64,000 nucleotides of DNA, taken from positions 12,930-76,929 of the forward strand of contig JBBAVI010000011.1 in NCBI GenBank assembly GCA_040397785.1, written 5' to 3'. Every line of letters begins with the position of its first letter. Within the stretch, counting starts at the first letter, position 1. The position numbers were made by a program, and so were the translations under genes. The stretch is from Saprospiraceae bacterium. Its GTDB lineage: Bacteria > Bacteroidota > Bacteroidia > Chitinophagales > Saprospiraceae. The notes under the pieces were generated by a model. That model ran no database searches. It was not told the DNA's origin and was given only the letters and a program-made list of their open reading frames with translations. Shown one piece after another: positions 5,727 to 63,788 of the stretch.

Positions 5727-8384
5727 TTAAAACATATCGTAATACATTTTAAGCGTCGGATCCGTCTCTTTAGCCTTAATTTCACTCAAAATCTGTTCTA
5801 AATTAGCCGCTTTCGCATCTTTCCCTTCCGCTTTTAAGCCATTTTTTAAATCTGAAATGGCTTTGGTCGCACCAAAACGACGCCATTGACTGGTTGCCAA
5901 ATTGAGGGAAATTACTTTTAATTTATCGACACCCGCCTCTATTGTAGCGTCATCATGGATTCCGGTGAGCATTTTTTGGTAAAAATCAAAAAATGTAAAA
6001 GCGCCCATATAATCAATTTTGTCCATCCGACGCTCAAAATAAGGCAAATTGTTGCGATCTGGTTTTTGTGCATACAATTCCGACAAGGACAGGATAATCT
6101 CATCATTATCATCGTTTTGCAGCGATTTGGATGCTTCAATGGCTGCCTCAGGATCCAGTTTGGTTAAGGCCGTGAGCGCTGCGCCTACTACGCTGTATGG
6201 CTGGGTGGGCTCCATCCCTTTTTTCAGGATTGGCACGTATTGCTTGTCTTCGCTTTCACCTAGCAAATTGATCGCCAGGGCCCGAACACTCGGTTCTTTT
6301 TCTGTTTCTGCCAATTTTGTCAATACAACAACCGTTTCTGCGTCTTTCGGATCAGCATGTTGCATGGCAATCGCACGCAAACCGTAATAAGCATCTTTCA
6401 ACGCTTCTTTAAATACGGGTTTGGCAGCAGCCGATTCGTCATTTTGTAAATTATCCAAAGCCTCAAACCGATCGCGGAACAAGGGGCCATGCTGGTACAT
6501 AAACACCCACTCTGCGGCTGTATGCTGGTCGTGCTTTACACACAACGTTGTTTTGGTTGCATCTACATTGATCAACGCCGGTTTTACCGCAGCGGCAAAT
6601 TCAAAGGTTTGCTTGCGCTTGGTGATGCGTATTTGTTCCCGCTTAACTGTCCCATCTGCATTGTAAATATCTACCGCCATCGGCAAATCAAACACAAACG
6701 GTACTTTCGGACCGTCCTGTATTTGATCAATTTGAACACTGGCCATTTTGCGGGCCTCATCGTAGCCATAACTGATTTCGAGATTAGGGTGGCCAGCACT
6801 AAAAAACCATTGATTCCAAAACCAGTTCAAATCCTGACCCGTCAAATCCTCAAATGCAAGGCGTAATTCGTGCGCCTCCACATCCGTGTACTCATTGCGT
6901 TTCAAATAACGACTCAAGGCCGCAAAAAAGGCCTCGTCGCCCAATTGGTTCCGCAACATATGAAGCACAGCGCCCCCCTTATTATAGGAATGCGCATCAA
7001 ACATATCCTCCCGATTGCCATAACCAAAGTTAATAAGCGGATGCCCGCCGTCCCCTGCCGAAAAAATATAGCCCTGCTGTTCCTGCATTTCATGGTCATC
7101 CGCAGCGTCGCGGCCGTGTTTGTGCTCTAACCACAGGTATTCCGAATAATTGGCAAAACCTTCATTGAGGGTCAGGTTTGCCCAGCTTTCGGTCGTCACA
7201 AGGTCGCCAAACCACTGGTGAAACATTTCGTGGGCAACTACTTTTTCGTTTGTCCAGTGCGCATCCAGCAAGCCACGCTTATTTTTTTGCATAAAGTCGC
7301 CAAAAATAACCGCCGAGGTATTTTCCATCGCGCCACTCACATAATCGCGCACCACTACCTGCGAAAATTTAGGCCAGGGGTAGGCATAGTTGAGTTTTGT
7401 AGAGAAAAACTCCAGCATTTCGGTCGTGTACGGGAAAATATCACGCGCATCCTGCTCAAAAGCCGGTTCCACATAATAGTCTACATCAATACCGCGCCAT
7501 TTGTCTTTTACCACGGCATATTCACCAATGGCCATCATAAATAAATAAGGTGCATGCGGTTTGTCCATTTTCCAGTAATCCGTACGGGTGCCGTCTGGGT
7601 TCTTTTTCGAACTCAACATCAGGCCATTCGACAAGGTTTTGTACTTATCTTCTACCGTAATGTATATTTCCTGGGTACAGCGTTCATTCGGCTTATCGAT
7701 GGTTGGAAACCAGCAAGAGTTGCTCTCTGTTTCACCTTGCGTCCAGATCTGTTTGGGTTTATCGGCTTCAGTCCCGTCGGCATTGATGAAATAAAGGCCT
7801 TTATCGCTGGTAATCGCGGCGCTGCCGCCGATGTTTGTGCGTTCGTCCGGTTTGGCGGTGTAGGTAACTACCACTTTAAATTCTTCCGAGCGGGTAAAAG
7901 TTTTCCCCAAATCAATATTCAATTGGCTCGAATCGTATTGGTATTTGAGTTGCTCGGTTTTTCCTTCCAGATTGACCGACAAAATGTCGAAATTCTTGGC
8001 ATCCAGGGTCAAATGGCTGCTTGGGTAAAACCACGGACGCAGCGTAAGGGTCGCTTTGCTGTTTGCGCGTTTTTTGGCCCAATCAAAGGAAATTTCAATT
8101 TTGGTATGCAGCAAATCATGTTCAAATGTATGCGATGGATTGTACGCACCCAAGGTGTCCAGATTTGTTTTTTGATCTGGACGCACCTCCGCACCTTCCA
8201 GTATTTTATATTCTTCAACGTCTTCCTCCGAGGCTTCACCCATTAAAGGTTTTTGGAGCGAATCCAATTCGGTTCGAGCCGCCGGCGGAATCGGGGTTGC
8301 AAGCGTGCCGGTTCCTGTTTTCGGTGTACAAGCGGCTAAAAGGAATAAGGCGGTCAAGTGTGCCGCGAAAAGGAGATTTTTCAT
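5727..8384 (-). CDS. M1-family zinc aminopeptidase (aminopeptidase N-like) lipoprotein with C-terminal helical-repeat region
   Basis: 885 aa with the GAMEN exopeptidase motif (SGAMENTSA) and the HEMFHQWFGD...E zinc motif. The lipoprotein-like signal is LFLLAAC. Confidence 0.9.
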   Translation of the reverse strand: MKNLLFAAHLTALFLLAACTPKTGTGTLATPIPPAARTELDSLQKPLMGEASEEDVEEYKILEGAEVRPDQKTNLDTLGAYNPSHTFEHDLLHTKIEISFDWAKKRANSKATLTLRPWFYPSSHLTLDAKNFDILSVNLEGKTEQLKYQYDSSQLNIDLGKTFTRSEEFKVVVTYTAKPDERTNIGGSAAITSDKGLYFINADGTEADKPKQIWTQGETESNSCWFPTIDKPNERCTQEIYITVEDKYKTLSNGLMLSSKKNPDGTRTDYWKMDKPHAPYLFMMAIGEYAVVKDKWRGIDVDYYVEPAFEQDARDIFPYTTEMLEFFSTKLNYAYPWPKFSQVVVRDYVSGAMENTSAVIFGDFMQKNKRGLLDAHWTNEKVVAHEMFHQWFGDLVTTESWANLTLNEGFANYSEYLWLEHKHGRDAADDHEMQEQQGYIFSAGDGGHPLINFGYGNREDMFDAHSYNKGGAVLHMLRNQLGDEAFFAALSRYLKRNEYTDVEAHELRLAFEDLTGQDLNWFWNQWFFSAGHPNLEISYGYDEARKMASVQIDQIQDGPKVPFVFDLPMAVDIYNADGTVKREQIRITKRKQTFEFAAAVKPALINVDATKTTLCVKHDQHTAAEWVFMYQHGPLFRDRFEALDNLQNDESAAAKPVFKEALKDAYYGLRAIAMQHADPKDAETVVVLTKLAETEKEPSVRALAINLLGESEDKQYVPILKKGMEPTQPYSVVGAALTALTKLDPEAAIEASKSLQNDDNDEIILSLSELYAQKPDRNNLPYFERRMDKIDYMGAFTFFDFYQKMLTGIHDDATIEAGVDKLKVISLNLATSQWRRFGATKAISDLKNGLKAEGKDAKAANLEQILSEIKAKETDPTLKMYYDMF

Positions 8385-34152: not shown

Positions 34153-34212
34153 AATATTTGAAAAATTGAAGAATTTGCTTACCTTTGCAGGCGATTAGAT
34201 TAACTGGCGAAT

Positions 34213-41689: not shown

Positions 41690-43345
41690 TTATTTCTTCA
41701 AAATATCGGTAATCACTTTTCCGGTCGAACCATTGGGCTCCATAATACGCAGAATGGCCGCAAGGGTGGGCGCAATATCAGTGATGTTTACCGGATCAAA
41801 GTTTTCTCCAGGTTTTACTTTCCAGCCATACCACAACAACGGTACATGTGTATCATAGGCATACGATGATCCGTGGGTAGTGCCGCCCAATTTGAATAAT
41901 TGATCATCGGCATGCCACGCGGGGTCTAATTGGTAAATAATATCGCCCGAACGGCGCGGATGAATTCCCTGCCGGATTTCACTTGCAAACGGATAATCGG
42001 TTGGCAGCATCATCACTGCTTCACGGGTATATGCGTCATAAACACCCGGTTGGTGCCGCATAAAATCGATAATAACCTGCGCAATTTCATTCGGATCTTG
42101 ATCAAGGTCGGCCACCGCATTCCAGTTGAGGTAAATTTGCTGGTTTACAATTTCAATAATATAATCGCCATTGATGCCCAGCGCAAATCCGATGGATTGC
42201 TCTAGTTTTTCCTCCAATTTGCTTTCTTCAAAAACACCAGCCGGAATTTGAAGATCGCGCAGGTGGGCGGGTGTCTCCGCACCGCCGTGGTCGGCTGTAA
42301 GGAATACCAACACGTTGTTTTTGCCAAATTTTTTGTCTAAATATTCCAAAAAGTTGGAAATGTCCCGATCCAGGCGCAAAAACAAGTCTTCCGTTTCTTC
42401 TCCATGCACGCCAAACTGGTGCGCGCAATAATCAGAACTGGAAAAACTCAGACATAAAAAATCGGGTACCTCATCCATGCCCATTTCATTGTTATCGATG
42501 GCGGCCTGTGCAAATTCGAGGGTAAGGGTATTTCCAAAGGGGGTAAAACGCAAAACACCGTACCCTTCCGACCTTTTGATCGTCGAGAAATCATGTGGAA
42601 ATCCACTTTTGATGCTTTTGGAATAAGTAGCATCATCGTAACGGTCCCAGTTTTCAAAACTTTCGGTATAAGGCGTTGTGAGGAGTTTGTTCCAGGTTTG
42701 CTTCATGTACGATTCGGGCAAACGGCGGTCATTAAAATCTTGCACCCATTTTGGCAGGGAGGTATCCTTGGGCTGATAATAGGAAGACGTAATGAAGCAG
42801 CCCGAGGCATCATCAAACCAGAAAGCACCATTGGGAATATGGCCTGCTGGCAAAATACTCGCCCGATCCTTCAGGCAAACGCCGATGACTTTCGATTGGA
42901 AATTGTTGGAAAGCCGCAGCTCATCCGTAATGGTGGTAGACAACAAAACGCGGGGCGAATGTTGACCCACCGATTTTTTTACACTGCGCGGTACCGATAG
43001 TACGGTGGTATCGGTGGTGACATACCGGTGTTTTCCCCATTCCGGATCGTACCAATCGTTGGCTATAATGCCGGAAACTGCCGGTACTGCACCAGCGTAA
43101 ATGGCTGCATGGCCTGGCGCGGTGTAGGTAGGAACGAAATTGTAGTGGGTGTTTTCGCAGGAAAATCCTTCGCGTAACAAGCGGTTAAAACCACCTGAAC
43201 CTAATTTTGATTGATAGCGGTACAAGTAATCATAACGCATTTGATCAACAACAATGCCCACAATTAGCTTTGGCTTAACAGGAGCATTTTGAGCAAAAGC
43301 AGTAAAAAAACTGATCGAAAATAATAAAACAAGCGTTTTGCGCAT
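41690..43345 (-). CDS. Alkaline phosphatase / nucleotide pyrophosphatase superfamily enzyme (PafA-like)
   Basis: 551 aa with a signal peptide. Motifs are GIVVDQMRYDYL, TYTAPGHAAIYAG, LTADHGG and HGSSYAYDTHVP, which are typical metal-ligand regions. Confidence 0.8.
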   Translation of the reverse strand: MRKTLVLLFSISFFTAFAQNAPVKPKLIVGIVVDQMRYDYLYRYQSKLGSGGFNRLLREGFSCENTHYNFVPTYTAPGHAAIYAGAVPAVSGIIANDWYDPEWGKHRYVTTDTTVLSVPRSVKKSVGQHSPRVLLSTTITDELRLSNNFQSKVIGVCLKDRASILPAGHIPNGAFWFDDASGCFITSSYYQPKDTSLPKWVQDFNDRRLPESYMKQTWNKLLTTPYTESFENWDRYDDATYSKSIKSGFPHDFSTIKRSEGYGVLRFTPFGNTLTLEFAQAAIDNNEMGMDEVPDFLCLSFSSSDYCAHQFGVHGEETEDLFLRLDRDISNFLEYLDKKFGKNNVLVFLTADHGGAETPAHLRDLQIPAGVFEESKLEEKLEQSIGFALGINGDYIIEIVNQQIYLNWNAVADLDQDPNEIAQVIIDFMRHQPGVYDAYTREAVMMLPTDYPFASEIRQGIHPRRSGDIIYQLDPAWHADDQLFKLGGTTHGSSYAYDTHVPLLWYGWKVKPGENFDPVNITDIAPTLAAILRIMEPNGSTGKVITDILKK

Positions 43346-43373: not shown

Positions 43374-43381
43374 CAAAGGTA
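43374..43381 (-). promoter_or_regulatory. Candidate -7 promoter box TACCTTTG for the phosphatase gene
   Basis: TAnnTTTG match on the minus strand, 28 nt upstream of the ATG at 43345. Confidence 0.45.
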
Positions 43382-51529: not shown

Positions 51530-52066
51530 TCATCCATATTTGGACTTTAGCAACGCGACGATCGTATCCACGCCGTCCATAGCAGGTTGGGTGATGAGTT
51601 GGTTGACCAATCCGTCAAGGGTGAAATACAGGATATTGGCCTCTACTTTAGGATTTTCCCATTCTAATGCCTGTAAAGCAACGATGAGTCGCTGCATGAG
51701 TGGCAACATGTAGGCTGGCGGTCCGGCATCATTTTTTCGATACCTGCGCTGCCATTTGAGGGAAATCTGTAAAGTCCAGAATGCACGCTCTTGCTGGAAG
51801 AGCAAAATGGGCAAATCAATTATTTTATGGATCGCCGTTACATGATTTGCTTCCTGTGAAATATCAATAATAAATGGTTGTAGATGCTCCTGCCCCAATT
51901 CGAGCAGGGCATCCATCAAGCCGTCTTTATTTGTGAAATGCCGAAAAATCAAACCTTCCGATACATGCGCCTCGCGTGCAATCTGGCTCGTGGGCGTAGC
52001 ATCGTAACCTTGTTCAGAAAACAAGCGCAAGGCAGTTTGGAGGATTTGTTCTTTCTTCTCAGTCAT
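51530..52066 (-). CDS. TetR-family transcriptional regulator
   Basis: 178 aa with the N-terminal HTH LFSEQGYDATPTSQIAREAHVSEGLIFRHF. Confidence 0.85.
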   Translation of the reverse strand: MTEKKEQILQTALRLFSEQGYDATPTSQIAREAHVSEGLIFRHFTNKDGLMDALLELGQEHLQPFIIDISQEANHVTAIHKIIDLPILLFQQERAFWTLQISLKWQRRYRKNDAGPPAYMLPLMQRLIVALQALEWENPKVEANILYFTLDGLVNQLITQPAMDGVDTIVALLKSKYG

Positions 52067-52070
52067 AAAA

Positions 52071-52095
52071 TTGTGAGTAATCGCTCACAAAGGTA
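52071..52095 (-). promoter_or_regulatory. Candidate TetR operator (7-6-7 inverted repeat TTGTGAG-n6-CTCACAA) overlapping a TACCTTTG -7 box
   Basis: The inverted repeat is at 52071-52090 and the -7 box at 52088-52095 (minus strand). Both lie within 30 nt upstream of the tetR ATG at 52066. Confidence 0.45.
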
Positions 52096-52878: not shown

Positions 52879-55800
52879 CTAACGCAAAATCGTGATGATC
52901 GGAAAATCCTGTCCATAACCGTAACTTGACGGGTACTGCGGCGAACCTTTATACCGCGCCGTGACATCGGGTACTTTTTCCTGCAAATAAGCATCCAACT
53001 CCTTCACCGTCAGTTTTTTATCGCCGGTATCACCCGCACCTTTGAAGGCCTCCAGTAAACAATACGTAAATGCACCATGCCCCAATTGGGCAAACTCAGA
53101 AGCAAATTGTGCACTTCCAGAGGCCGTTAGCCAATGCGTGCCGGTGGAGCGGGCAAGTTGGGCAATGGCTTTTTCTTCGGCCGCACCCCGCGCCACAACC
53201 ACCTGCTCCAATGCGCCTGCCGACTGACAAGCATCCAGGATAAACAATTGTTTTTGGGCTTTTATTTCCTTCGAATAGCTTTGTAGTTCATTGGCACTCA
53301 GTCCTTTTTGCGCCAGGGCTTCATCATTTCCATACAACTGGGTTACATCTTGCGGCACCAGGAAAAAGGTCTTTTGATCGTTGATGACCCCATGACCGGC
53401 ATAGTAAAACAAGAACAAATCTTGTGGATTGGCGGTGGCTTTCACTTTATCGAGGGCCGCTACGATCCCCGCTTTTGTGGCTTGTTCGTTGGTGATAAAA
53501 ATGGTGTTTACCTTGCTAAAAATACTTTTAGCACCTTGTTCGATGGCATCTTTAAAGGCCAATGCATCCGCTTGTGCATAGTTCAGGCTGTATTTTGGGT
53601 TTTTATAGGTATTAATCCCGATGACCACCAAGTGCAATTGCAGACCACCCGTAGTGCTTGTATTTTTGTTTGATCCAGCCAGGAAAATCACCATCTCTGC
53701 CGGTACGGATTCGGTGCGTTGTTTGTTGATGGCGACTGCACGGATCGTGTTTTCACCGGGTAAAAGCGGGAGGGTGTATGATTTGTTAAATTGACTATTG
53801 CTGGCATTTTCCTCCTCTACGATCAGGTTGCGGGTGCTGGACTCGACCAATTTTCCATTCAGAAACAGTCGGATTTCGGCAATTTCACCGTCTTTGCTGG
53901 CTGCTTCCAGTTGGATATTTACCGAGGATTGCGTGGCGTCGTACACCTCCAATTTGGGGTCGTTGCGCTTTTTGCCACCGTTAAACATCATTTTGATGGT
54001 AGGAAGGGGCTTTAATTGCTTGATATTGGGCAGGTTTTGTGGCAAATTTTGGTCCCACACCTGGGAAAGTAAGCCCGGTACGTAATATTGCTCGTATAAA
54101 CTTTCCAGTGGAATAATTTCGTTACCCCGGCTGTAATACATTTTCTGCATAGCGCCCGCAGAAGCATCGAAGCGCCCATCGGGGGTAAAAACAACCCAGT
54201 CCTCGGTTTCTTCAAAAAGTAAAATCCGAGCCACCTGCCGCTTTTTTTCCAAATCGTATATGCTCAATCCGCTGCTTTCGGAAGTAACCAGGTAGCGTTC
54301 ATTGCGCATGAAAAAAACATCTCCGCCGCGCTCTTCCGGGCATTTAATCACATGGGTTTGCTTTTGGGTAATTACGTCTACAATGGCAAGGTCATCGCCC
54401 ACTGCATCATTTGTCTTGTTGTTAAGTTGCACCGCCGCTGTCTTTCCGGAAGGAGAAAGGGTCGTCCACCATTCCGTAGCCGGGAGTTGGCAGGTGGCTT
54501 TGTTGGGCGTTCCGGTGGCCGCATCCAGCCAGATCAGTTGATCTTTTTCGGTGAAACTGGCCGTTTTACCACCATTTTCGAACCGAACATTATCGAGCCA
54601 GTTGCCAACATGCTGCCAAAGGATCCGTTTACCCACTAAATCATAACAATACACCAAATCAAAACCTTCCGATCCATCGGTGCGAAAAAGCAGCCGTGAT
54701 TTGTCGGGCGAAAGGTCACAGATGTAATTATGGCCGCTTTCATACAACACGTAACCGCTGGAGGCTTCCGGTTTGGGCACAAAACTCCGCAGCTTGTAGT
54801 TTTTTAAGTCAATAATATAAATCCCTTCATTGGCCACAGCCGCCAGAAAACCTGCCGCCTCAAATATCCGCAAACCCACCAGTCCGACAGCTGGTATGGT
54901 TTCTATTTGTTTATAAACGAGTTCTTTGCTACTCGGATCAAATTCATACAATCCCTGGGTATTTACCACCACAAATCCGCGTTTGCCATCGGCGGTAAGT
55001 CGATAAACACAATTTGCATTTTCCACCGGTGCTTTAAACCGCTTCACATGCAGGCTATTTTGGTCAAAATACAACGCACGGTCTTGCAACCATAAGCCAT
55101 CGGTGTGTTGCATGGAATAATTTTGTTCGGCATGCAAAGGCGTGTATCCGTATTTACCTTGATACACGTCGCCCGGCATCGCATATTTACCCATCGTGAT
55201 CCCCATGATATAATATTTTCCAGACGGGGCAAAACGCAGGTTTTGGGGGCCATTTATACCGTAACCAGGATATTCGAATTTGCTGATGGCGCTTGCCGTA
55301 AAATTGCGCACATCAAAAATCCGGTATTCCCCCTGGTATTCGAGCGCAAGTTGGTTGGCATTAATTGGGTAGGCCTCCGTAATACTCATCGGATCTATAT
55401 CTGATTCGACGCGGAACAGCTCTAAAGATTTGCGTTTCGACTGGCCGCTGTTGGCGTCTAATTCTTCCAAAAAGAAGGTCTTTTCATCTTCACCAGAAAA
55501 GGCCAGTAAATTGCCATTGGGCAGGTAAGTGTACGGAAAGGTTTTTTTATCGTAATTTTTTACTAACTTTTTGGTATTCAGGTTGATAATACGCGTTCCC
55601 ATCACCTGATCGTACAAAAGCAATTGTTGCTCATCGAGGCTCAGGCTTAGGCGGTTGATGGCGTGGGTGGCCATGGTTTTTACCGTATAGGCGTATATCG
55701 TGGACGAAATTCCTGTTGCAAGGGTAATTTTTTGCACAAAAAGGTTGTCATATTGCGCCGTTTCGCGGCCGCCGCCATACAACGTTTTCCCATCGGCGGA

Positions 55801-56178
55801 AAAAATCAGCGTTCCCAGGGTATGGGCTAATTTGATTTTTTGCGTCAACACAAAACGATTGAGGTTGTATAGGTACAAGGTATCGGCGTTTTGGAAAGCC
55901 AGCCATTGATTATCGGAACTTACCGTGAGTATATGCTCAAAGTTGAGTTGTCGGCCGCCAGTGTATGTAGGGAACATGATGTTTTTGAGCAGCCGTCGGG
56001 TTTCGTTTTCCCAAATTTTTATTTCTGAAGCCCCCGCTGTAATCAGGTATTTTTCATCATGTGTAAAAACAACATTATCAGCATAGTGCCGTGCGGGAAA
56101 AATCAATGCTGGCGCTTCTGTTTGTGCCAGAGAAACAAAAGCCTGAAGCAAAAGTAGAATGGAAAAGAGGTATTTCAT
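52879..56178 (-). CDS. Secreted beta-propeller (WD40-like) protein with C-terminal caspase-like C14 peptidase domain
   Basis: 1099 aa with the signal peptide MKYLFSILLLLQAFVSLAQ. About 800 aa are repeat-rich and beta-propeller-like, followed by an Ig-like segment and then a caspase fold. The His motif is FYYAGHG (His codon 53392-53394). The Cys motif is FILDACQSAG (Cys codon 53227-53229). Confidence 0.8.
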   Translation of the reverse strand: MKYLFSILLLLQAFVSLAQTEAPALIFPARHYADNVVFTHDEKYLITAGASEIKIWENETRRLLKNIMFPTYTGGRQLNFEHILTVSSDNQWLAFQNADTLYLYNLNRFVLTQKIKLAHTLGTLIFSADGKTLYGGGRETAQYDNLFVQKITLATGISSTIYAYTVKTMATHAINRLSLSLDEQQLLLYDQVMGTRIINLNTKKLVKNYDKKTFPYTYLPNGNLLAFSGEDEKTFFLEELDANSGQSKRKSLELFRVESDIDPMSITEAYPINANQLALEYQGEYRIFDVRNFTASAISKFEYPGYGINGPQNLRFAPSGKYYIMGITMGKYAMPGDVYQGKYGYTPLHAEQNYSMQHTDGLWLQDRALYFDQNSLHVKRFKAPVENANCVYRLTADGKRGFVVVNTQGLYEFDPSSKELVYKQIETIPAVGLVGLRIFEAAGFLAAVANEGIYIIDLKNYKLRSFVPKPEASSGYVLYESGHNYICDLSPDKSRLLFRTDGSEGFDLVYCYDLVGKRILWQHVGNWLDNVRFENGGKTASFTEKDQLIWLDAATGTPNKATCQLPATEWWTTLSPSGKTAAVQLNNKTNDAVGDDLAIVDVITQKQTHVIKCPEERGGDVFFMRNERYLVTSESSGLSIYDLEKKRQVARILLFEETEDWVVFTPDGRFDASAGAMQKMYYSRGNEIIPLESLYEQYYVPGLLSQVWDQNLPQNLPNIKQLKPLPTIKMMFNGGKKRNDPKLEVYDATQSSVNIQLEAASKDGEIAEIRLFLNGKLVESSTRNLIVEEENASNSQFNKSYTLPLLPGENTIRAVAINKQRTESVPAEMVIFLAGSNKNTSTTGGLQLHLVVIGINTYKNPKYSLNYAQADALAFKDAIEQGAKSIFSKVNTIFITNEQATKAGIVAALDKVKATANPQDLFLFYYAGHGVINDQKTFFLVPQDVTQLYGNDEALAQKGLSANELQSYSKEIKAQKQLFILDACQSAGALEQVVVARGAAEEKAIAQLARSTGTHWLTASGSAQFASEFAQLGHGAFTYCLLEAFKGAGDTGDKKLTVKELDAYLQEKVPDVTARYKGSPQYPSSYGYGQDFPIITILR

Positions 56179-56217: not shown

Positions 56218-57213
56218 TTACTCTTTACCCGTTTCAATTTTTACCCCAAAACGGTTGCCGCCCAAGGCATACAATTGAATTTTAAGCAACACACCAAGAT
56301 CTTGATCGTCAAAGGTTTGTACTTTCCAAACATGGGTATTGCCCGTATTGGTGCTGTATGCTGCTTTGTACACCAGGCGGTATTCCAGACCTTCGAGGCT
56401 TGCAATACTTTTCAAGGTTTCATCGTAATAGGTACGGGCCTCGTTCAGCGCATCAAAGTTCCTTCTGGCTTCCAGGCGCCATTGCCCGGCGGCATTTTTG
56501 CGAATAATGGTTTGTTCGGCGCCATCAAAAGCAATGGCTGCGATAAATTCATCTTTTTTACCTTCAATCGGGGTGGCCCGCAAGTCTTTAAGATCCTGCT
56601 CCGCCGCACTTTTCAGGTAGGTATTAAGCGCCAGGGTTTGGGTTTCATCGGCTTTAGGCGCCGGAGCAACACCGTCCTCAACGGGCTCGTCGTTAAACAG
56701 GTTGTCCGGCACATCAAAGCTGGGTTCTTGGGCAAATTCAGTATCCGGCAGGTTGGCAGCAATAACGATTTTATTGTTAAAAAACCAAAGCATTGAAACC
56801 GTGCCCTCTGCTGTTTTATTCAATAACCAGTGGTTGGCAAGGCTGGGATGGGTGGCGGGACCTAAATCGGCCGTAAGCAAAGCCTCCAACGTATCGGCGT
56901 CTTCAAATTCAAAAATTACCTCGTACAAAGGCCGGTAACCATCCATGTCAAAAATATAAGAGATGCCCAGCAAACCTTTTTCCTGGATAGGCCAGTAATA
57001 CTCCTGGCGAAAATTAATGCCGCTGTCCACTTTTTTAACCGGAAAACGGCGGCTCAGAAAAGTATCTAAAGGCGTAGTGATCGGCACATTTTGGTTGGCC
57101 GTAACGGTGGCAAAAATTTCACCATACTCCTTTCTGGTAGCACCGCTTTGGGCATAGATTAAATCATTGAAAATCAAAAAAATATACAGAATATGCAGGA
57201 TTCGCTTGTTCAT
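56218..57213 (-). CDS. Secreted hypothetical protein
   Basis: 331 aa with the signal peptide MNKRILHILYIFLIFNDLIYAQ. No family recognised. It is co-directional with its neighbours, with 39- and 41-nt gaps. Confidence 0.6.
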   Translation of the reverse strand: MNKRILHILYIFLIFNDLIYAQSGATRKEYGEIFATVTANQNVPITTPLDTFLSRRFPVKKVDSGINFRQEYYWPIQEKGLLGISYIFDMDGYRPLYEVIFEFEDADTLEALLTADLGPATHPSLANHWLLNKTAEGTVSMLWFFNNKIVIAANLPDTEFAQEPSFDVPDNLFNDEPVEDGVAPAPKADETQTLALNTYLKSAAEQDLKDLRATPIEGKKDEFIAAIAFDGAEQTIIRKNAAGQWRLEARRNFDALNEARTYYDETLKSIASLEGLEYRLVYKAAYSTNTGNTHVWKVQTFDDQDLGVLLKIQLYALGGNRFGVKIETGKE

Positions 57214-57254: not shown

Positions 57255-58991
57255 TTATAAAGAAAAGCCCAGGGTCATACCCATACGTATTTGAAAACCC
57301 CAATAGGTTTCTTTTCGGGCAGATAAAAAGGCGTTGCTGAAATTGTAATCGGCGCGCGGATAGGCAGGGTTGTTGAGGTCGAACAGGTTATACGTGGCGC
57401 CCAAGCCAAAGTAGAAATCGGCGCCAAAGGGGCGGTGCTGCCAAAGTTGTCCAAAATTCAACATAACACCATAAGCGGTAAGTTTTGGGGTAAAAGGCAA
57501 GTCTGTGGTGATCGCAACACCACTCGTTTTATCTAGTACGGCACTCATTTGAGGCTGATAATTGCGTTCATTGTAGGTAAGCAAAAAGCCACTATACCCG
57601 CGGGATGCACTACGCTCGGATTTCAATTTTTTGTATCCGAAGTGGGCATAGAAACCGTCCCAATGCGGGTTCGGGAAATCTGTCAGGTTATCGGCATTGC
57701 TCAGCCGCTCGTTCTGGAGGTAATCCTGGTCATTTTTGGCCTTCATGTAAGAAAACTCGAGCATCGATTGGCCAATTGGAAGGTTGATCACGCCGCCTAA
57801 ATCAATATATTGCGGACGTTGCACTATGCGTAAAACATAAGCGCCTACATACATACGGTTTCTGTTGGCGCGTTTTGCGGCCCGCTCTTGCCGTTTTTGG
57901 GCTTCCTGGGCGCGCTTTTGGGCTGCTGCGCGGCATCGATTGGCTGTTTCCTCGATGGCTTTCGCTTTGTTGACATCCCCAAATTTTTTAAAATAAGCCG
58001 CCAGGCGCTCATATTCTGCACAATTGTCGGAGCCGATTTGTGGTAAAATTTTATTGCAAAATTTCCAGCCGCCTGCCGATTCACCCGCCTGTTCAAATAA
58101 GGGCAACAAATCCCAGCATTGCGCATTGGTAAAACCGTAACCCAAATCCAGGGCCTGGCTGTAAAACTGGCCGGCCAGGGCATTCATATCGCCTGAACGG
58201 TGCAAATCCTCCGCAATTGAAAACGAGGCCGACCCGTTTTTATCCCAACCCACAGGGGCCGATTTACCGGTGAGGAACAAATCCGCCACGGATTTCAGGA
58301 GCACGGTACCAAAATTAACCCGATTCATATCAGCCCGTTGGGTTGCATCCATTTTGGCGTACAAATCAATCATTTTTCGGGCTTGATCTATTTTACCTGG
58401 TTTTTCTACGGTAAAGTCATACAGGTACTTATGCATAAAAAATGTTACTACATAGTATCCTTCCGGTTGTAGATCAAATACCTTTTGCGCATATTTTCTC
58501 AAATTGACGGCATCTGTCTTTTTGAAATAGTATTCGGCCAATTCGCCATAAAAGCGCTGTCGGGTTTGCAAAAAGGCAGTATATTCAATGACAAATGCCT
58601 TTCCGCCGGATTGATACCGAAAAGGGAATTCGGTAGGGCCCAGTCGATCGAATTCGCTTTCAATGGATTTTAGTAGCTGGTCGCCTAGGCCTGTATCCGT
58701 GTTGCCCAGTTTGTTGTAGTACACTTCCGCCCGCAAATGGACCAGCACTGCCAGGAAATATTTTGCGGTACGCTTTTCTTCTGCCGTTCCTTTTTTGAGC
58801 ACGCTTTTCAGGAGTATTTCGGCATTATCCGCTAGTTTTAACAAACTGGCAGGATCTACATCCGGTTTAGTGGAGGATTCGGTGATGGTTTGATAAACGC
58901 GGACTGCATTTTCGAGTTGCTGCTCGGTTTGTGCCATAGCAGTCAAGTGCAACATGGTGAGCATGCTGCCAATCAAGTAGTATTTTTTCAT
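57255..58991 (-). CDS. Secreted hypothetical protein: N-terminal helical (TPR-like) region, basic coiled coil, C-terminal beta-rich (possible outer-membrane barrel) region
   Basis: 578 aa with the signal peptide MKKYYLIGSMLTMLHLTAMAQ. The central segment is AAAQKRAQEAQKRQERAAKRANR. The last ~200 aa show alternating aromatic/Gly strand patterns and end in ...RMGMTLGFSL. Confidence 0.6.
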   Translation of the reverse strand: MKKYYLIGSMLTMLHLTAMAQTEQQLENAVRVYQTITESSTKPDVDPASLLKLADNAEILLKSVLKKGTAEEKRTAKYFLAVLVHLRAEVYYNKLGNTDTGLGDQLLKSIESEFDRLGPTEFPFRYQSGGKAFVIEYTAFLQTRQRFYGELAEYYFKKTDAVNLRKYAQKVFDLQPEGYYVVTFFMHKYLYDFTVEKPGKIDQARKMIDLYAKMDATQRADMNRVNFGTVLLKSVADLFLTGKSAPVGWDKNGSASFSIAEDLHRSGDMNALAGQFYSQALDLGYGFTNAQCWDLLPLFEQAGESAGGWKFCNKILPQIGSDNCAEYERLAAYFKKFGDVNKAKAIEETANRCRAAAQKRAQEAQKRQERAAKRANRNRMYVGAYVLRIVQRPQYIDLGGVINLPIGQSMLEFSYMKAKNDQDYLQNERLSNADNLTDFPNPHWDGFYAHFGYKKLKSERSASRGYSGFLLTYNERNYQPQMSAVLDKTSGVAITTDLPFTPKLTAYGVMLNFGQLWQHRPFGADFYFGLGATYNLFDLNNPAYPRADYNFSNAFLSARKETYWGFQIRMGMTLGFSL

Positions 58992-58992
58992 A

Positions 58993-59637
58993 TCAGATGA
59001 TTCCTTTGCGACGGGCCTGTTCGACGGCGGCGGTTTTATTGTTTACCTGAAGTTTTCTGTAAACATGTTCAATATGGGTTCGTACGGTGCCGGTCGAAAC
59101 AATTAGGTTGTTGGCTACTTGTTGGTAGCTCAGACCTCGGCTCAATTGTTCTAAAATTTCAACTTCGCGGGGAGTAAGATTATGTTCGGGCGTTTCGGCG
59201 GGCGGGGTGCCCCGACGCATCATTTGTAGTGCTTTTCGGGCAACGGCGGGCGACATTGGTGCGCCGCCTTCCAATGCTTCATGGAGGTTGCGGTGTAAAC
59301 TTTCTGGTGTTTCATCTTTTAACAAATAACCATCGGCACCCGCAAGAATGGCATCAAAAATGTGGTTTTCATCTTCAAAAACCGTTGCCATCACCACTTT
59401 TACCTGTGGATACAGATCTTTAAGCGCCTGGGTGGCCACAATTCCATTCATTTCAGGCATATTAATATCCATCAGCACCAAATCGGGTTTGTGGAAGCAG
59501 CCTTCGAGCCATTGCAGCAGCAAGCGGCCATTCATGGCCACGTGCACCACCTGAAAATCGGCAGAGGCCTCTACATTTTCCTGTAACATCCGCGCCAAAC
59601 GCGGCAGGTCTTCAGCAATGGCGATGTGGTATGGCAT
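58993..59637 (-). CDS. NarL/LuxR-family response regulator
   Basis: The start was moved to MPYHIAIAEDLP. It has a REC domain (LVLMDINMPEMNG) and a LuxR HTH (LTPREVEILEQLSRGLSYQQVANNLIVSTGTVRTHIEHVYRKL). The stop codon is 1 nt from the next gene's start. Confidence 0.9.
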   Translation of the reverse strand: MPYHIAIAEDLPRLARMLQENVEASADFQVVHVAMNGRLLLQWLEGCFHKPDLVLMDINMPEMNGIVATQALKDLYPQVKVVMATVFEDENHIFDAILAGADGYLLKDETPESLHRNLHEALEGGAPMSPAVARKALQMMRRGTPPAETPEHNLTPREVEILEQLSRGLSYQQVANNLIVSTGTVRTHIEHVYRKLQVNNKTAAVEQARRKGII

Positions 59638-59688: not shown

Positions 59689-59739
59689 CAAAGGTAGGCT
59701 TCCTTTTCTTGTCGGCTTATCCGACGAATATCGGATATT
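59689..59739 (-). promoter_or_regulatory. Candidate regulated promoter: 22-bp palindrome TATCCGACGAATATCGGATATT, 21-nt spacer, -7 box TACCTTTG
   Basis: The palindrome is at 59718-59739 (inverted repeat TATCCGA/TCGGATA) and the box at 59689-59696, 51 nt upstream of the regulator ATG. A near-identical module occurs at 63122-63172. Confidence 0.5.
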
Positions 59740-59750
59740 GCGGGTAAGGC

Positions 59751-61544
59751 TTAGGGTGTGCGCAAAGGCACCAGGATCGTTATCGATGTTCCCGTATCGG
59801 GTATGCTGGAGATATTGCAAGTGCCGCCAATTTCGACGGCGCGCTGGCGCATATTTTGCAGGCCATAGCCCATGGTAAGTTGCGTGTCTATCTGGAATCC
59901 TTGGCCATTATCATACAGCACCATGCGCAATTGCGGCTCCTGGAGGTCGAACAAAATATGCACTGCATCGGCAGCAGCATGTTTGATGGCATTGGTGATG
60001 CCTTCCTGGGCAATACGGTACAAGTTGAGCAAAATGCCAGGACTGAGTATCAGCGACTCTAAATCGGATTTGCAGGTGATATTTACTTCAACCTGGGTGT
60101 TTTTACCTGCAAATTCGCTTATTTTGGTCAATAATTCCTGCAATGGAGCATCCTGGGTTTGAATGGCCCAGATCGTTTCCCGCAATTGCTGCATGGCGGT
60201 TCGCGTATTGTCCACAATATTTTTTAGGGCATTTTGTTGCGTTTGATCGCCGGTACGCTGCACCTGGCGGGTCAGTTCCGATCCGATCAGGGTCAATTCG
60301 GCCCCTAAATTGTCGTGCAGGTCGCGGCTGATGCGCAGTCGTTCTTCCTGCAGTCCGTTGTACATTTCGGCCCGAAGCAGTTCTTCCTGCAGTTGGGCTT
60401 CCCGTTGCAATTGGGCTTGTTTTTCGCGTTGCCGTTTGATCAGCACAGATCCAACAGCGATACTCAGCAGCAACAGCCCAATCAATGCTAACAGCCAAAA
60501 ATTCCGGCTGCGCACCCGCAATTGTTCCCGAATGAGGTCCTTTTCTTTCCGGGCCGTTTCGTATTTAGTTTGCATTTCTGCAATCTGTCGGCTGCGGTTA
60601 ATGTTAAAAAGGCTGTCTTTAAGGGAATTGCTCAAGTTAAGCCAGTGGAGTGCTTCTTTAAAATTGCCGCTTTCTTGCTCGCATTTCGCCAGCATTTCGA
60701 GGTTATATTGCCGTAAAGCCAGAAAATTGATGCTCGACGCGATGGCTAAACTTTTTTCAAAATAGGCTTTTGCGTCTTTGTAACTGGCTGCTACCAGGTA
60801 CGCTTCCCCAATGTTGCAATAATTGACGGCCATACCTTGTTTGTCGCCCATTTTTGCCCGAATTTGCGTCGATTGTTCGATCAAATCAATCGCCAAGCGC
60901 GTATTCCCTGCGTCAGAGGCGACGGAAGCGAGGTTATTTAACACATATCCCAGTCCGATACTATCGCCAATGGCCTGCCGGATCGAAAATACGCGCAAAA
61001 ACAATTCCTGCGCCTGAGGCCATTCATTGTGCTGCATGGCTATGATGCCCCGATTATCGAGTGCCGTTGCCAGCAAACTCGAATCCCGGGCTTTCAAGGC
61101 TGCCTGCTCTGCGGCTACCGTATATTGTACCGCCTTTTCTTGTTCCTTAAAACGGGAATAATAAATGGCCATTTCATTGAGCACCGAGGCTTTGCCTGCC
61201 TCCTCGCTCAAGGCTTCGAAAAGGTCGAGCGCCTGCTGGTAATAACCCAGTGCTAATTCATATTTTCCTAGCAAATAGTAGTTTACCCCCAGGTTTTTGA
61301 GGGTTTTGGCCTCTAATAATCGGAGTTTGTCGTTCCGTGCAATGGTGAGCGCACGTTCTCCCAACACCTTACCCTGTTCGAAATCGGCCGATGAAATCGC
61401 GTAAAACCGTGCATTAATCAGCGTTACCTGTGCCTCCGGGGCAAGATTGGGCAAGGCTGCCAGTACTGAGTCAAGCGTAGTTTGTGCCTGGCAGCCGACC
61501 GCCAGGCACAAACAAACTATCCATGTCAGTATCCGTTTTTGCAA
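59751..61544 (-). CDS. Sensor histidine kinase (HisKA_3/NarX type) with signal peptide and extracytoplasmic TPR sensor domain
   Basis: 597 aa with a TTG start 2 nt after the upstream stop. The signal/lipobox is CLCLAVGCQAQ. About 330 aa are TPR-like repeats. One TM helix is present (FWLLALIGLLLLSIAVGSVLI), then the H-box RISRDLHDNLGAELT and an HATPase_c domain (DNGQGF...GYGLQNMRQRA). Confidence 0.85.
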   Translation of the reverse strand: MQKRILTWIVCLCLAVGCQAQTTLDSVLAALPNLAPEAQVTLINARFYAISSADFEQGKVLGERALTIARNDKLRLLEAKTLKNLGVNYYLLGKYELALGYYQQALDLFEALSEEAGKASVLNEMAIYYSRFKEQEKAVQYTVAAEQAALKARDSSLLATALDNRGIIAMQHNEWPQAQELFLRVFSIRQAIGDSIGLGYVLNNLASVASDAGNTRLAIDLIEQSTQIRAKMGDKQGMAVNYCNIGEAYLVAASYKDAKAYFEKSLAIASSINFLALRQYNLEMLAKCEQESGNFKEALHWLNLSNSLKDSLFNINRSRQIAEMQTKYETARKEKDLIREQLRVRSRNFWLLALIGLLLLSIAVGSVLIKRQREKQAQLQREAQLQEELLRAEMYNGLQEERLRISRDLHDNLGAELTLIGSELTRQVQRTGDQTQQNALKNIVDNTRTAMQQLRETIWAIQTQDAPLQELLTKISEFAGKNTQVEVNITCKSDLESLILSPGILLNLYRIAQEGITNAIKHAAADAVHILFDLQEPQLRMVLYDNGQGFQIDTQLTMGYGLQNMRQRAVEIGGTCNISSIPDTGTSITILVPLRTP

Positions 61545-61546
61545 AT

Positions 61547-63040
61547 TTAGTTGTGTGTTATTTCCACCATCAGCGGCACCACGGTACCCTGATGTTTAAC
61601 TTTTTTTACTTGAAATCCAATTTCGTCCAAAGCGTAACTGACTTCCGACGGGAGGATTAATTGATCACCCAGGGCGGCTTTGATTTTTTGCGATAAACCG
61701 CCCGCCGTTTGGTTCATTTTATTTAGTATTTGAGCCGTATTGAGCGGTCCCTGGCTGTATAAAATCAGCATATAGTCCGTACCCGCTTGTTGGTCCATTT
61801 TTACAATTTTTGTTTCAGAAGGGAAGGCCACTTCACTTTCGGCTCCGATGTGCGGCGACATATTATCGTCAAAAGGCAGGATTTTATTCACTTTGCCTGA
61901 CAAATCGGTTGCGAAGGCGTAAATATAAGATTCTGAATTGGTAGTAATGTAAAATCTAAATTTAGTGCCACTTGAATAGGCTTCATCCATGCGGTAGGCC
62001 ATCAAATCTTCTTTGTAAGCAGGCGTATCATCTTCTACAATCAGGTTGCGGGTGAGGATCCGGTTGGCAGGCATTTGGGCACCCGTATTGGTTTGAAAAC
62101 GCACTTTTCCTGCCAACAACACATCCATAACCGGGTCGATCGGGCTCGGCGTTGGAGTAGGTGCGGGTGTCGGCGTAGGCTCAGGCTGTACAACGGTAGC
62201 AGGATAAGCCTGGATTGCAATCAGAGAATATTCGGCAAAATCTTTGTATTTTATCCATACAAAACCGCCATCGCCCCAAGTACTGCCCCAGCTGTTGAGC
62301 ACCCGAAATGCGCCCCCGTATTGATTGTCATCATACCCAACGATGCACATAGCGTGCCGTCCGTGTTGTCCGGTTGGACCATCGTCGGTCGCCAAGGGTT
62401 CCCAGAGTGCTTTGGAATTGTAAAATGATTCGGTTACCAAAAAGCCCAGCATGCAGGGATAACCTTCTGAAAGCGCTTTTTTCACACTGTTTATTTTTAT
62501 GGAAGCGTCTATTTCATCGGGCAAATAAAGGATCTGGTAGTCGGCAATGCGAAAATCAAAACCTTCGAGCATGGCTTCCACGGCCACGGATGCGCCACAT
62601 TGATAAGGCATGGTTTGGTTGGTGGCAACCCCCAGGTTTTTCATCAGTTCAAAAGCGTCGACCGGGTTGGTACCTTCCTGGCAATTGACATCCCCTTCAG
62701 CCTTGATTTGTTCGTATACGTAAGAGGGCGAAAAGATGCGCTGGTTGATTTTTGAGGAGCTTGTGATATTGTTTTGTTTGGCCCATAAAATGGTACGCAA
62801 ATGATAGGCCACCGAAAAAGCCACGCAAGTGCTGTATTGTCCCTGATCGCCCGGTGTTGGGCAGAATTTTTCGAGGGAAGCCGCCCTAGGCATGGCCTTA
62901 TAACTTTGAGTGGTGAGTTTGGCTTTGTAGGGGATGGTCCGCAGTGTAGGCGGATCAAAGATCATTCCGGTAGTTTTTTTTTGGGCAAAAACGGTCGTAG
63001 CTGCCAACAAGAGCGCAGCAAGCAAAGTAACATGTTTCAT
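61547..63040 (-). CDS. Secreted papain-like (C1) cysteine peptidase with Pro/Thr linker and C-terminal DUF4384-like domain
   Basis: 497 aa with a signal peptide. The catalytic Cys context is GDQGQYSTCVAFS (Cys codon ~62825-62827). The His/Asn contexts are GRHAMCIVGY and VLNSWGSTWGDGGFVWI. The linker is PEPTPTPAPTPTPSP. The tail (YSSGTKFRFYITTNSESYIYAFATDLSGKVNKILPF) resembles DUF4384. Confidence 0.75.
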   Translation of the reverse strand: MKHVTLLAALLLAATTVFAQKKTTGMIFDPPTLRTIPYKAKLTTQSYKAMPRAASLEKFCPTPGDQGQYSTCVAFSVAYHLRTILWAKQNNITSSSKINQRIFSPSYVYEQIKAEGDVNCQEGTNPVDAFELMKNLGVATNQTMPYQCGASVAVEAMLEGFDFRIADYQILYLPDEIDASIKINSVKKALSEGYPCMLGFLVTESFYNSKALWEPLATDDGPTGQHGRHAMCIVGYDDNQYGGAFRVLNSWGSTWGDGGFVWIKYKDFAEYSLIAIQAYPATVVQPEPTPTPAPTPTPSPIDPVMDVLLAGKVRFQTNTGAQMPANRILTRNLIVEDDTPAYKEDLMAYRMDEAYSSGTKFRFYITTNSESYIYAFATDLSGKVNKILPFDDNMSPHIGAESEVAFPSETKIVKMDQQAGTDYMLILYSQGPLNTAQILNKMNQTAGGLSQKIKAALGDQLILPSEVSYALDEIGFQVKKVKHQGTVVPLMVEITHN

Positions 63041-63121: not shown

Positions 63122-63172
63122 CAAAGGTCGGGGTAGTAGGGCAGCGGGCCTATCCGATGTTTATCGGATATT
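63122..63172 (-). promoter_or_regulatory. Second copy of the palindrome module: TATCCGATGTTTATCGGATATT, 21-nt spacer, GACCTTTG box
   Basis: The palindrome at 63151-63172 matches 59718-59739 at 19 of 22 positions. The box at 63122-63129 lies 81 nt upstream of the C1 peptidase ATG. Confidence 0.45.
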
Positions 63173-63175
63173 AGC

Positions 63176-63553
63176 GTTGGCTCAAGTCCAGACACTAGGA
63201 TACTTTTTGTAAGTAAGGCCTACGTTGGGAAGGAACACGACTACGCATTATTAAAGGCAGCGTTCCCTTGCGCGATACCTTGGTTTAAGAATTTTATCGT
63301 ACGATTGGATTCTGGTTATCAAGGTTTTCAGTCAGATTACGAATCTTAAAAAAGTTACCTACCACATAAGAAGTCGAAAAAGAAGGAACTAACTGATGGA
63401 CAAAAAAATTAAAATTAAGTGGCTGCTAGGGAACGAATAAAAGTTGAGCACAGCACAGGTGGATTAAAACGTTATCGAATTCTAAGTGAACGCACAAGAA
63501 TTAAGGATTTTGTCTTATTTGATGAAATTATTGGTATTTGTGCAGGCTTATAG
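63176..63553 (+). pseudogene. Decayed, 5'-truncated DDE transposase gene (IS5/Harbinger-like DDE_Tnp_4 type)
   Basis: A single frame reads ...ILFVSKAYVGKEHDYALLKAAFPCAIPWFKNFIVRLDSGYQGFQSDYES*KSYLPHKKSKKKELTDGQKN*N*VAARERIKVEHSTGGLKRYRILSERTRIKDFVLFDEIIGICAGL*. It has the D(x)GYQG and R-I-K-V-E-H motifs, three in-frame TAA stops and no N-terminal third. Confidence 0.65.
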
Positions 63554-63650
63554 AATTACACTAAAATCAACACAAATGATTGATTGTAATCATGTCACCA
63601 ACTCTATTAATTATGGGATAAAAGTACTATGCATTGTTTATAAATAAAAG

Positions 63651-63788
63651 GGGTTCCACGGAGAAGCTTGGAGGGACGGAGTTACGCGGAGAAAAAAGGG
63701 TTCCACGGAGAAGCTTGGAGGGACGGAGTTACGCGGAGAAAAACTCTGTGCAACTCCGTCCCTCCAAGCTTCTCCGTGGAACCCTTTT
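63651..63788. repeat. Composite repeat: two perfect 46-bp direct copies plus an inverted partial copy forming a ~35-bp perfect hairpin
   Basis: The unit gggttccacggagaagcttggagggacggagttacgcggagaaaaa occurs at 63651-63696 and 63698-63743. The reverse complement of its first 31 nt lies at 63754-63784. The stem 63694-63728 pairs with 63754-63788. Confidence 0.9.

Follow-up and report, generated by a model that had tools for sequence, protein, structure and literature searches.

A conserved palindrome at a fixed distance from Bacteroidota-type −7 boxes as the candidate operator of a NarL-type response regulator in a Saprospiraceae protease cluster

In a bacterium of the family Saprospiraceae, a cluster of genes for secreted proteases and a two-component system carries the same palindrome twice, each time at the same distance from a putative −7 promoter box, and this raises the question of what recognizes the palindrome and how it may act on the genes that follow. 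The stretch studied, referred to below as the window, comprises 64,000 nt (assembly GCA_040397785.1, contig JBBAVI010000011.1, positions 12,930–76,929 of the forward strand). To our knowledge, regulation in Saprospiraceae and in most environmental Bacteroidota is essentially unstudied, and the action of activators at −33/−7 promoters is poorly known. According to our analysis, the palindrome is very probably bound by the NarL-type response regulator that the cluster itself encodes. We further consider it likely that the two copies serve as operators through which this regulator (58993–59637) stimulates its own expression from two promoters, designated here P1 and P2.

All genes of the cluster region lie on the minus strand (Table 1). 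The kinase gene begins 2 nt past the end of the peptidase gene, and its product is composed of a signal/transmembrane segment, TPR repeats, a second transmembrane segment, HisKA_3 and HATPase_c; the regulator thus has a HisKA_3-class partner kinase (PF07730 and PF02518) in the adjacent 597-aa protein. The regulator itself combines a receiver domain (PF00072, E 3.5e-23) with a C-terminal GerE/LuxR helix-turn-helix (PF00196, E 3.2e-16), and the alignment of regulators has E9, D10, D57, T85 and K107 invariant, that is, the acidic pocket, the phospho-acceptor Asp, the Thr and the Lys of the receiver. Judged by its sequence, it is a bona fide member of the NarL/FixJ family and not an orthologue of NarL. 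The cargo of the cluster is unusual. It includes a signal-peptide-bearing beta-propeller/caspase protein, for which the best NCBIfam model, below its cut-off, is "caspase, EACC1-associated type," and a papain-like peptidase fused to DUF4384 (61547–63040). Homologues of the 578-aa protein (45% and 25% identity) adjoin related regulators in other contexts (L118 3631–5418 and L008 8124–9923), and DUF6498 proteins are recurrent near regulators related to that of the window.

Table 1. Genes and predicted regulatory features of the cluster in the window, and positions of B-type sites in related loci
Feature	Coordinates	Strand	Basis
P1 unit, gene 1: secreted papain-family (C1) peptidase with DUF4384 domain	61547..63040	-	Pfam
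P1 unit, gene 2: sensor histidine kinase, 597 aa, TPR repeats, HisKA_3 and HATPase_c	59751..61544	-	Pfam, NCBIfam
P2 unit, first gene: NarL/FixJ-type response regulator, receiver and GerE HTH, recognition helix GTVRTHIEHVYRKL	58993..59637	-	Pfam, NCBIfam, NarL alignment
P2 unit: 578-aa secreted protein, no known family	57255..58991	-	Pfam
P2 unit: 331-aa secreted protein, no known family	56218..57213	-	Pfam
P2 unit: 1099-aa beta-propeller protein, C-terminal caspase (C14) domain	52879..56178	-	Pfam, NCBIfam
Operator P2 (predicted): 20-bp 7-6-7 palindrome, minus strand TATCCGATATTCGTCGGATA, predicted position -53..-34	59718..59737	-	kept in L002, L005, L121, L017, L029
P2 spacer, 21 nt: length conserved, sequence not, no TTG -33 element	59697..59717	-	alignment of 17 sites
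P2 -7 box TACCTTTG; predicted TSS ~59684, 5'UTR ~47 nt	59689..59696	-	box position -12..-5 from PMC9723704
Operator P1 (predicted): 20-bp palindrome, minus strand TATCCGATAAACATCGGATA	63151..63170	-	kept in L002, L005, L121, L014, L022
P1 -7 box GACCTTTG, 21 nt past palindrome; predicted TSS ~63117, 5'UTR ~77 nt	63122..63129	-	relatives' alignment
B-type sites	L008 7267, 7430; L010 6788; L122 6250, 7152; L123 7948, 9803; L124 5990/6009, 6948; L057 72		

The P2 copy is the 22-mer TATCCGACGAATATCGGATATT (59718–59739), accompanied by CAAAGGTA at 59689–59696, which reads TACCTTTG on the minus strand; it lies inside the gap between the kinase and regulator genes (coding strand: cAATATCCGATATTCGTCGGATAagccgacaagaaaaggaagccTACCTTTGtcg). 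The P1 copy, TATCCGATGTTTATCGGATATT (63151–63172), is identical to it at 19 of 22 positions and lies ahead of the first gene of the cluster (sequence upstream of the peptidase gene, coding strand: tAATATCCGATAAACATCGGATAggcccgctgccctactaccccGACCTTTGttt). From each copy, exactly 21 nt lead downstream on the coding (minus) strand to (T/G)ACCTTTG. The initial annotation had reported the 22-mer with its inverted 7-mers, the coordinates, the spacing at both sites and the degree of identity between the copies, and the sequence read-out agrees with it throughout, including the 113-nt length of the gap (the kinase ORF with its stop ends at 59751, and the ATG of the regulator is at 59637). Its statement that the window holds no further copy was also borne out: a search for TATCCGA-N6-TCGGATA with up to two mismatches returned only P1 and P2, each of them a perfect match, with 0.08 matches expected and none of 100 shuffles giving two or more. 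The identical octamer that it had noticed before a tetR gene and a phosphatase gene is indeed present at 52088–52095 (tetR start at 52066) and 43374–43381 (start of the phosphatase-family gene at 43345). A fourth exact copy of TACCTTTG was observed at 34180–34187 on the plus strand, approximately 70 nt upstream of a rimP-nusA operon, as would be expected if the octamer were a common variant of the −7 box in the host.

Conservation of the two sites was assessed in orthologous loci that had been fetched by the protein identity of the regulator, independently of the motif. The nearest relatives of the regulator were found in metagenome bins of Saprospiraceae/Lewinellaceae, at 94% (L002–L004), 87% (L005–L007) and 86% identity (L121); the gene order in these loci is that of the window, with the 578-aa gene missing from the L005–L007 lineage. 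At both promoters of L002, L005 and L121 we found ATATCCGAT-N4-(A/G)TCGGAT(A/G), 21 nt and nAnnTTTG, and the spacer and the flanks are unrecognisably diverged in L005 and L121. The alignment of 17 sites has the consensus AATATCCGAT-N4-aTCGGAT(a)-g.cc-N-cc-nAccTTTGt, in which the two boxes at a fixed distance stand out as a clean phylogenetic footprint. The closest orthologues (L002, L014/29 and L017/22) are too similar to inform on conservation. Both sites with the exact 21 nt are present in every cluster fetched, so the conservation that the initial annotation had proposed to look for in orthologous clusters was found.

A scan of 185,579 genomes with the pattern TATCCGA-N6-TCGGAT-N23-ANNTTTG gave 24 matches, with about 17 expected by chance according to our estimate. 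Real flanking similarity was limited to P1 and P2, both of which were matched in each of two related bins, Saprospiraceae E1_MAG_00004 and Bacteroidetes Ja1_bin-1389; since the pattern required exact half-sites and a −7 box, this count of two per genome sets a minimum for the size of the regulon. Matches in Ruminococcus, Nitrospira, Bacillus and similar genomes were rejected, as they occurred in a chance-level number and had no flanking similarity. Matches in two Verrucomicrobiaceae bins (L024 2970–3018 and L028 299–347) were likewise set aside as coincidental and unrelated to the Bacteroidota system; these two loci share a conserved TATCCGACAAAAGTCGGATA palindrome upstream of a gene beginning MTPEQVHLIRKSFAEL. 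No publication on the motif or on this regulator family in Bacteroidota was found in the open-access literature searched.

These counts bear on the possibility that the palindrome belongs to a dispersed repeat or an IS end, which the initial annotation had named as a refuting case, or to a MITE, or that the two copies are a chance pair. Such an origin could draw on the AT-rich stretch just upstream of P1 (63200–63790), which contains a repeat element and an ORF that looks transposase-like by eye. However, only two copies are present in the 64 kb of the window and two per related genome in the scan, P1 and P2 resemble each other only in the palindrome and the −7 box, and P1 is retained in orthologues with entirely different upstream neighbours. 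We regard this origin as extremely improbable. As observations in their own right, the short plus-strand ORF at 63419–63553 (…KVEHSTGGLKRYRILSERTRIKDF…), within the AT-rich part at 63200–63640, looks by eye like the C-terminus of a DDE transposase and may be the trace of an insertion that has decayed just upstream of P1. A 47-nt unit at 63646–63788, present in two tandem direct copies and one inverted copy that form a hairpin with 45-nt arms, gave only spurious sub-threshold miRNA matches in Rfam and looks like a REP- or MITE-like intergenic repeat.

Beyond the orthologous clusters, the palindrome accompanies the regulator into other gene contexts. In L116–L120, the regulator is 72% identical, with the helix ATVRTHIENVY, and stands in the order PrsW protease, regulator, 595-aa homologue of the 578-aa protein and DUF6498, with no kinase upstream; here TATCCGATATTCATCCGATT, 21 nt and GACTTTTG lie directly ahead of the regulator ATG. 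The regulator of L044, a soil metagenome contig, is approximately 46% identical over residues 50–207, and its kinase–regulator gap contains ATATCCGATAAATATCCGATT, 21 nt and CATTTTTG; the locus was found through a scan for the palindrome only, and the 21-nt spacing is therefore an independent observation. Two Pontibacter species also matched, P. rugosus (L034 2126–2174) and P. silvestris (L027 5742–5790), and in these two species the A-type palindrome (half-site TCGGATA), 21 nt and TAG(C/T)TTTG precede genes for very large proteins that are secreted or located at the cell surface. In P. rugosus, TATCCGATATTTATCGGATT, 21 nt and TAGCTTTG come about 100 nt after a HisKA_3 kinase gene and the gene for a NarL-type regulator, with a gene for a 1507-aa secreted protein downstream; the regulator is 39% identical overall, and its helix, GTVRTHIEHVY, is that of the window. 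Across the loci compared, the NarL-type regulator is the sole gene common to all that bear the motif.

The same variants help to judge whether the palindrome might instead act as an RNA hairpin, serving downstream of the kinase gene to end transcription, to direct processing or to stabilize the RNA, or else acting at the 5' end of the transcripts. An 8-bp stem of about −9 kcal/mol is possible, with z-scores of −4 to −4.6. The sequence has no T-run, however, and the terminator scan makes no call; moreover, the stem is invariant in sequence, with compensatory changes absent, and the variants of L116–L120 and L044 break it by a central C–C mismatch and keep the position and the spacing. The P1 element lies upstream of the predicted TSS and hence would be outside the transcript, and with E values up to 1 allowed, Rfam 15 still matches neither P1 nor P2. 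An RNA element is accordingly very improbable.

Indications as to which protein may read the palindrome come from the covariation of the recognition helix and the half-site. Regulators at 52–66% identity to that of the window carry VRKHIEN/H in place of VRTHIEH, and their loci contain a second form of the palindrome, AATACGC-N6-TCGTATT, designated here B-type, with a geometry (7-6-7) identical to that of the A-type. All five VRKHIEN/H lineages (L008/9, L010, L122, L123 and L124/5) have B-type sites with zero mismatches and none has an A-type site, and A-type sites are present in all VRTHIEH/N lineages, none of which has a B-type site. The type of motif thus tracks the recognition helix across at least 10 lineages and differing gene neighbourhoods. 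Two bases of the half-site differ between the A-type and the B-type, with T in place of G at position 4 and T in place of A at position 7. In the HMMER alignment, residues 2–205 of the regulator are placed on NarL, with R186, T187 and E190 on Lys188, Val189 and Lys192, the residues by which NarL makes base-specific contacts (PMC10853779). As residue 187 (Thr or Lys) is aligned with NarL Val189, the residue that distinguishes the two classes would be a base-contacting one.

The two-component systems encoded in the B-type loci are NarL-type paralogues, for the most part with TPR-type sensor kinases, and the sites precede either operons in which the regulator is included or comes last, or neighbouring genes for large secreted proteins. 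The distance from the B-type palindrome to nAnnTT(T)G is 21–22 nt, and the −7-like box is often nAnnTTGC, resembling the SM5 motif TAnnTTGY (PMC9723704). In L010, the segment between the kinase gene and the B-type site (6440–6700) was observed to contain an extended series of degenerate short tandem repeats (GGATACTTGATGCTGGATACT…) with hairpin-forming GC-rich units scattered among them. As a control, we used 80 metagenome loci (539 kb) with NarL-type regulators at 35–46% identity; the search alignment behind this set included the Pontibacter regulator, which led to degenerate receiver-domain peptide patterns, and it returned no orthologues. No A-type site at up to one mismatch was present in these 80 loci (539 kb), and one B-type site was; the half-site ATCCGAT/ATCGGAT occurred 77 times against 66 expected in them, that is, without enrichment.

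Two exceptions to the correspondence were noted, a hybrid A/B site (AATCCGATGTTTATCGTATT) in the kinase–regulator gap of L123 and a B-like site in L057 upstream of an operon whose regulator has RTHIRN. The apparent code between helix and half-site holds in the close subfamily and is not universal. Nothing speaks directly for the idea that the palindrome is bound by another transcription factor, encoded elsewhere, and that its association with the regulator gene is purely positional, but these exceptions leave some room for it. We consider this improbable, as it would leave unexplained why the type of motif follows the helix of the regulator through so many different neighbourhoods, and as Pfam identifies no DNA-binding domain in the cluster other than that of the regulator.

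The position of the palindrome relative to the promoter may indicate what a bound regulator would do. In Flavobacterium, the sigma-A −7 box occupies −12 to −5 and has the consensus TAnnTTTG (PMC9723704). The −33 element of Bacteroidota is TTTG/TTG. Bayley et al. in 2000 and Chen et al. in 2007 are said to have described a usual spacing of 19–21 nt between the −33 element and the −7 box. By itself, TAnnTTTG is not enriched in the window (70 occurrences against 62.7 expected), and the assignment of a −7 box therefore needs a conserved position in relatives. Such a position was found: TACCTTTG at P2 matches the Bacteroidota sigma-A consensus, GACCTTTG at P1 matches it without the first T, and nAnnTTTG is present at the same offset in all relatives. 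A scan for sigma-70 promoters found nothing at P1 or P2, but such a scan is irrelevant to this phylum.

If the −7 box is placed at −12 to −5, the palindrome would span −53 to −34 and be centred at −43.5. A TTG at −35 to −33 arises from the final TT of the palindrome and the G next to it in all B-type sites as well as in L116–L120, Pontibacter and L044. As the promoter-proximal end of the palindrome sits at the place of the −33 TTG, we read the fixed 21 nt as the spacing between the sigma-A −33 and −7 elements, with the operator and the −33 element probably fused. In the window and in orthologues of at least 86% identity, no TTG is present at −35 to −33 or elsewhere in the P1 or P2 spacer, and the position of the −33 element reads ATAG, ATAA or ATGG; this lack of a −33 element is the pattern expected of an activator-dependent promoter. 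In the 17-site alignment, 11 bp separate the centres of the half-sites and the 4 bp in the middle are A/T-rich, as would suit a dimer of LuxR-type HTH domains bound to a single face of the helix. Because the half-site core, ATC(C/G)GAT, is nearly self-complementary, a change of the central base in the promoter-proximal half-site, together with the outermost flanking base, is essentially all that separates the seemingly direct variants of L116 and L044 from the inverted form. In Ja1_bin-1389, the P1 palindrome read on the opposite strand (L022 1388–1436, minus strand) is followed after 21 nt by GACATTTG; this could be a divergent promoter with GACATTTG as its −7 box, and it has no conserved counterpart in the window.

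With the same operator and the same regulator, the sign of the regulation could also be the reverse: a regulator seated on the −33 region could block sigma-A and repress its own synthesis. The overlap of the operator with the −33 TTG in the group at 72% identity, in Pontibacter, in L044 and in all B-type sites is compatible with this, and a bound regulator could equally occlude sigma region 4. Nevertheless, the promoters of the window and its orthologues, which read ATAG, ATAA or ATGG and not TTG, are of a kind typical of activator dependence; the strict helical phasing and the centre at −43.5 match those of activating NarL at yeaR; and FimR, the studied analogue from Bacteroidota, is an activator. 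Repression therefore seems rather unlikely to us, and autoregulation is probably positive.

The initial annotation had taken the palindrome for a plausible cognate operator and the cluster for an autoregulated two-promoter regulon, and this reading gains support from the conservation in orthologues, the copy number and the association with the regulator. In the scheme that we favour, positive autoregulation from two promoters, we infer that the TPR sensor kinase would phosphorylate the regulator, a dimer of which would occupy the two ATC(C/G)GAT half-sites, with centres 11 bp apart, on a single face of the DNA. With the centre of the palindrome at about −43.5 and its promoter-proximal end abutting the would-be sigma-A −33 element, the dimer may aid RNA polymerase at a promoter whose −7 box is good but which lacks a −33 TTG. 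P1 would drive the peptidase and kinase genes, and P2 the genes for the regulator, the 578-aa and 331-aa proteins and the caspase. As one site would drive the peptidase and kinase and the other the regulator and its cargo, the system would amplify both of its own components and turn on the protease cargo.

The operator, the promoter and the regulator can thus be assigned to each other, as predictions, from sequence alone, and the secreted protease cluster, with its papain-like peptidase and caspase-like beta-propeller protein, would constitute a self-amplifying regulatory unit. Autoregulation by a NarL-type regulator through a palindrome near −43 is a textbook principle. In kind, this is an ordinary autoregulated two-component system, though one to which the genomes of relatives give unusually good support; what is modestly new is the family-wide promoter module and the correspondence between helix and half-site. 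We propose only tentatively, as something slightly less probable than its converse, that the 7-6-7 palindrome, the 21 nt, the −7 box and the dimer at −43.5 fused to or replacing the −33 element make up one rigid Bacteroidota-wide module of a large family of FimS/FimR-like NarL-type systems, many with TPR-type kinases, in which a partly readable code pairs Thr187 with TCGGATA and Lys187 with TCGTATT. If true, this would offer a first general account of how activators support transcription at the unusual sigma-A promoters of the phylum and would open a route to regulon prediction for many uncharacterised systems.

Inverted repeats bound by dimers of LuxR-type HTH proteins include the palindromic boxes of LuxR/TraR (18–20 bp) and the 20-bp palindrome of DosR, and the lux box, centred near −42.5, is an activator site of class II type. 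The predicted operator of the window resembles such boxes in its 20-bp geometry, but LuxR and TraR are controlled by ligands, DosR belongs to other lineages, and the window has neither their sequence nor their type of promoter.

The resemblance to Escherichia coli NarX/NarL is closer in architecture. A receiver is joined to a LuxR/GerE HTH and served by a HisKA_3 kinase, the best PDB match of the regulator is 1a04 (E 3e-30), and its best NCBIfam match is also NarL. The NarL dimer activates yeaR from an inverted repeat centred at −43.5 (PMC10853779), the centre predicted here, just upstream of or abutting the −35/−33 element. The operators differ, however: NarL binds inverted TACYYMT heptamers 2 bp apart (7-2-7, 16 bp; PMC10853779), and the site in the window is 7-6-7 (20 bp) with the half-site TATCCGA. 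In addition, the score against NCBIfam NF007935 is 136 bits against a cut-off of 250 bits, and the promoter is of the Bacteroidota sigma-A type (−7 TAnnTTTG) and not a sigma-70 promoter.

Porphyromonas gingivalis FimS/FimR provides a counterpart from the same phylum. FimS has clustered TPR repeats in its periplasmic sensor domain (PMC11053733), and the window kinase is likewise a TPR sensor kinase that matches the FimS model (E 1.7e-23), but at 83 bits against a cut-off of 600 bits it is not an orthologue. Neither PMC11053733 nor PMC1974823 gives a consensus site of FimR with which the operator could be compared. FimR is an activator and binds the promoter regions of mfa1 and of the gene that heads its target cluster (PMC1974823); its targets are fimbriae, whereas the predicted targets in the window are proteases and a caspase.
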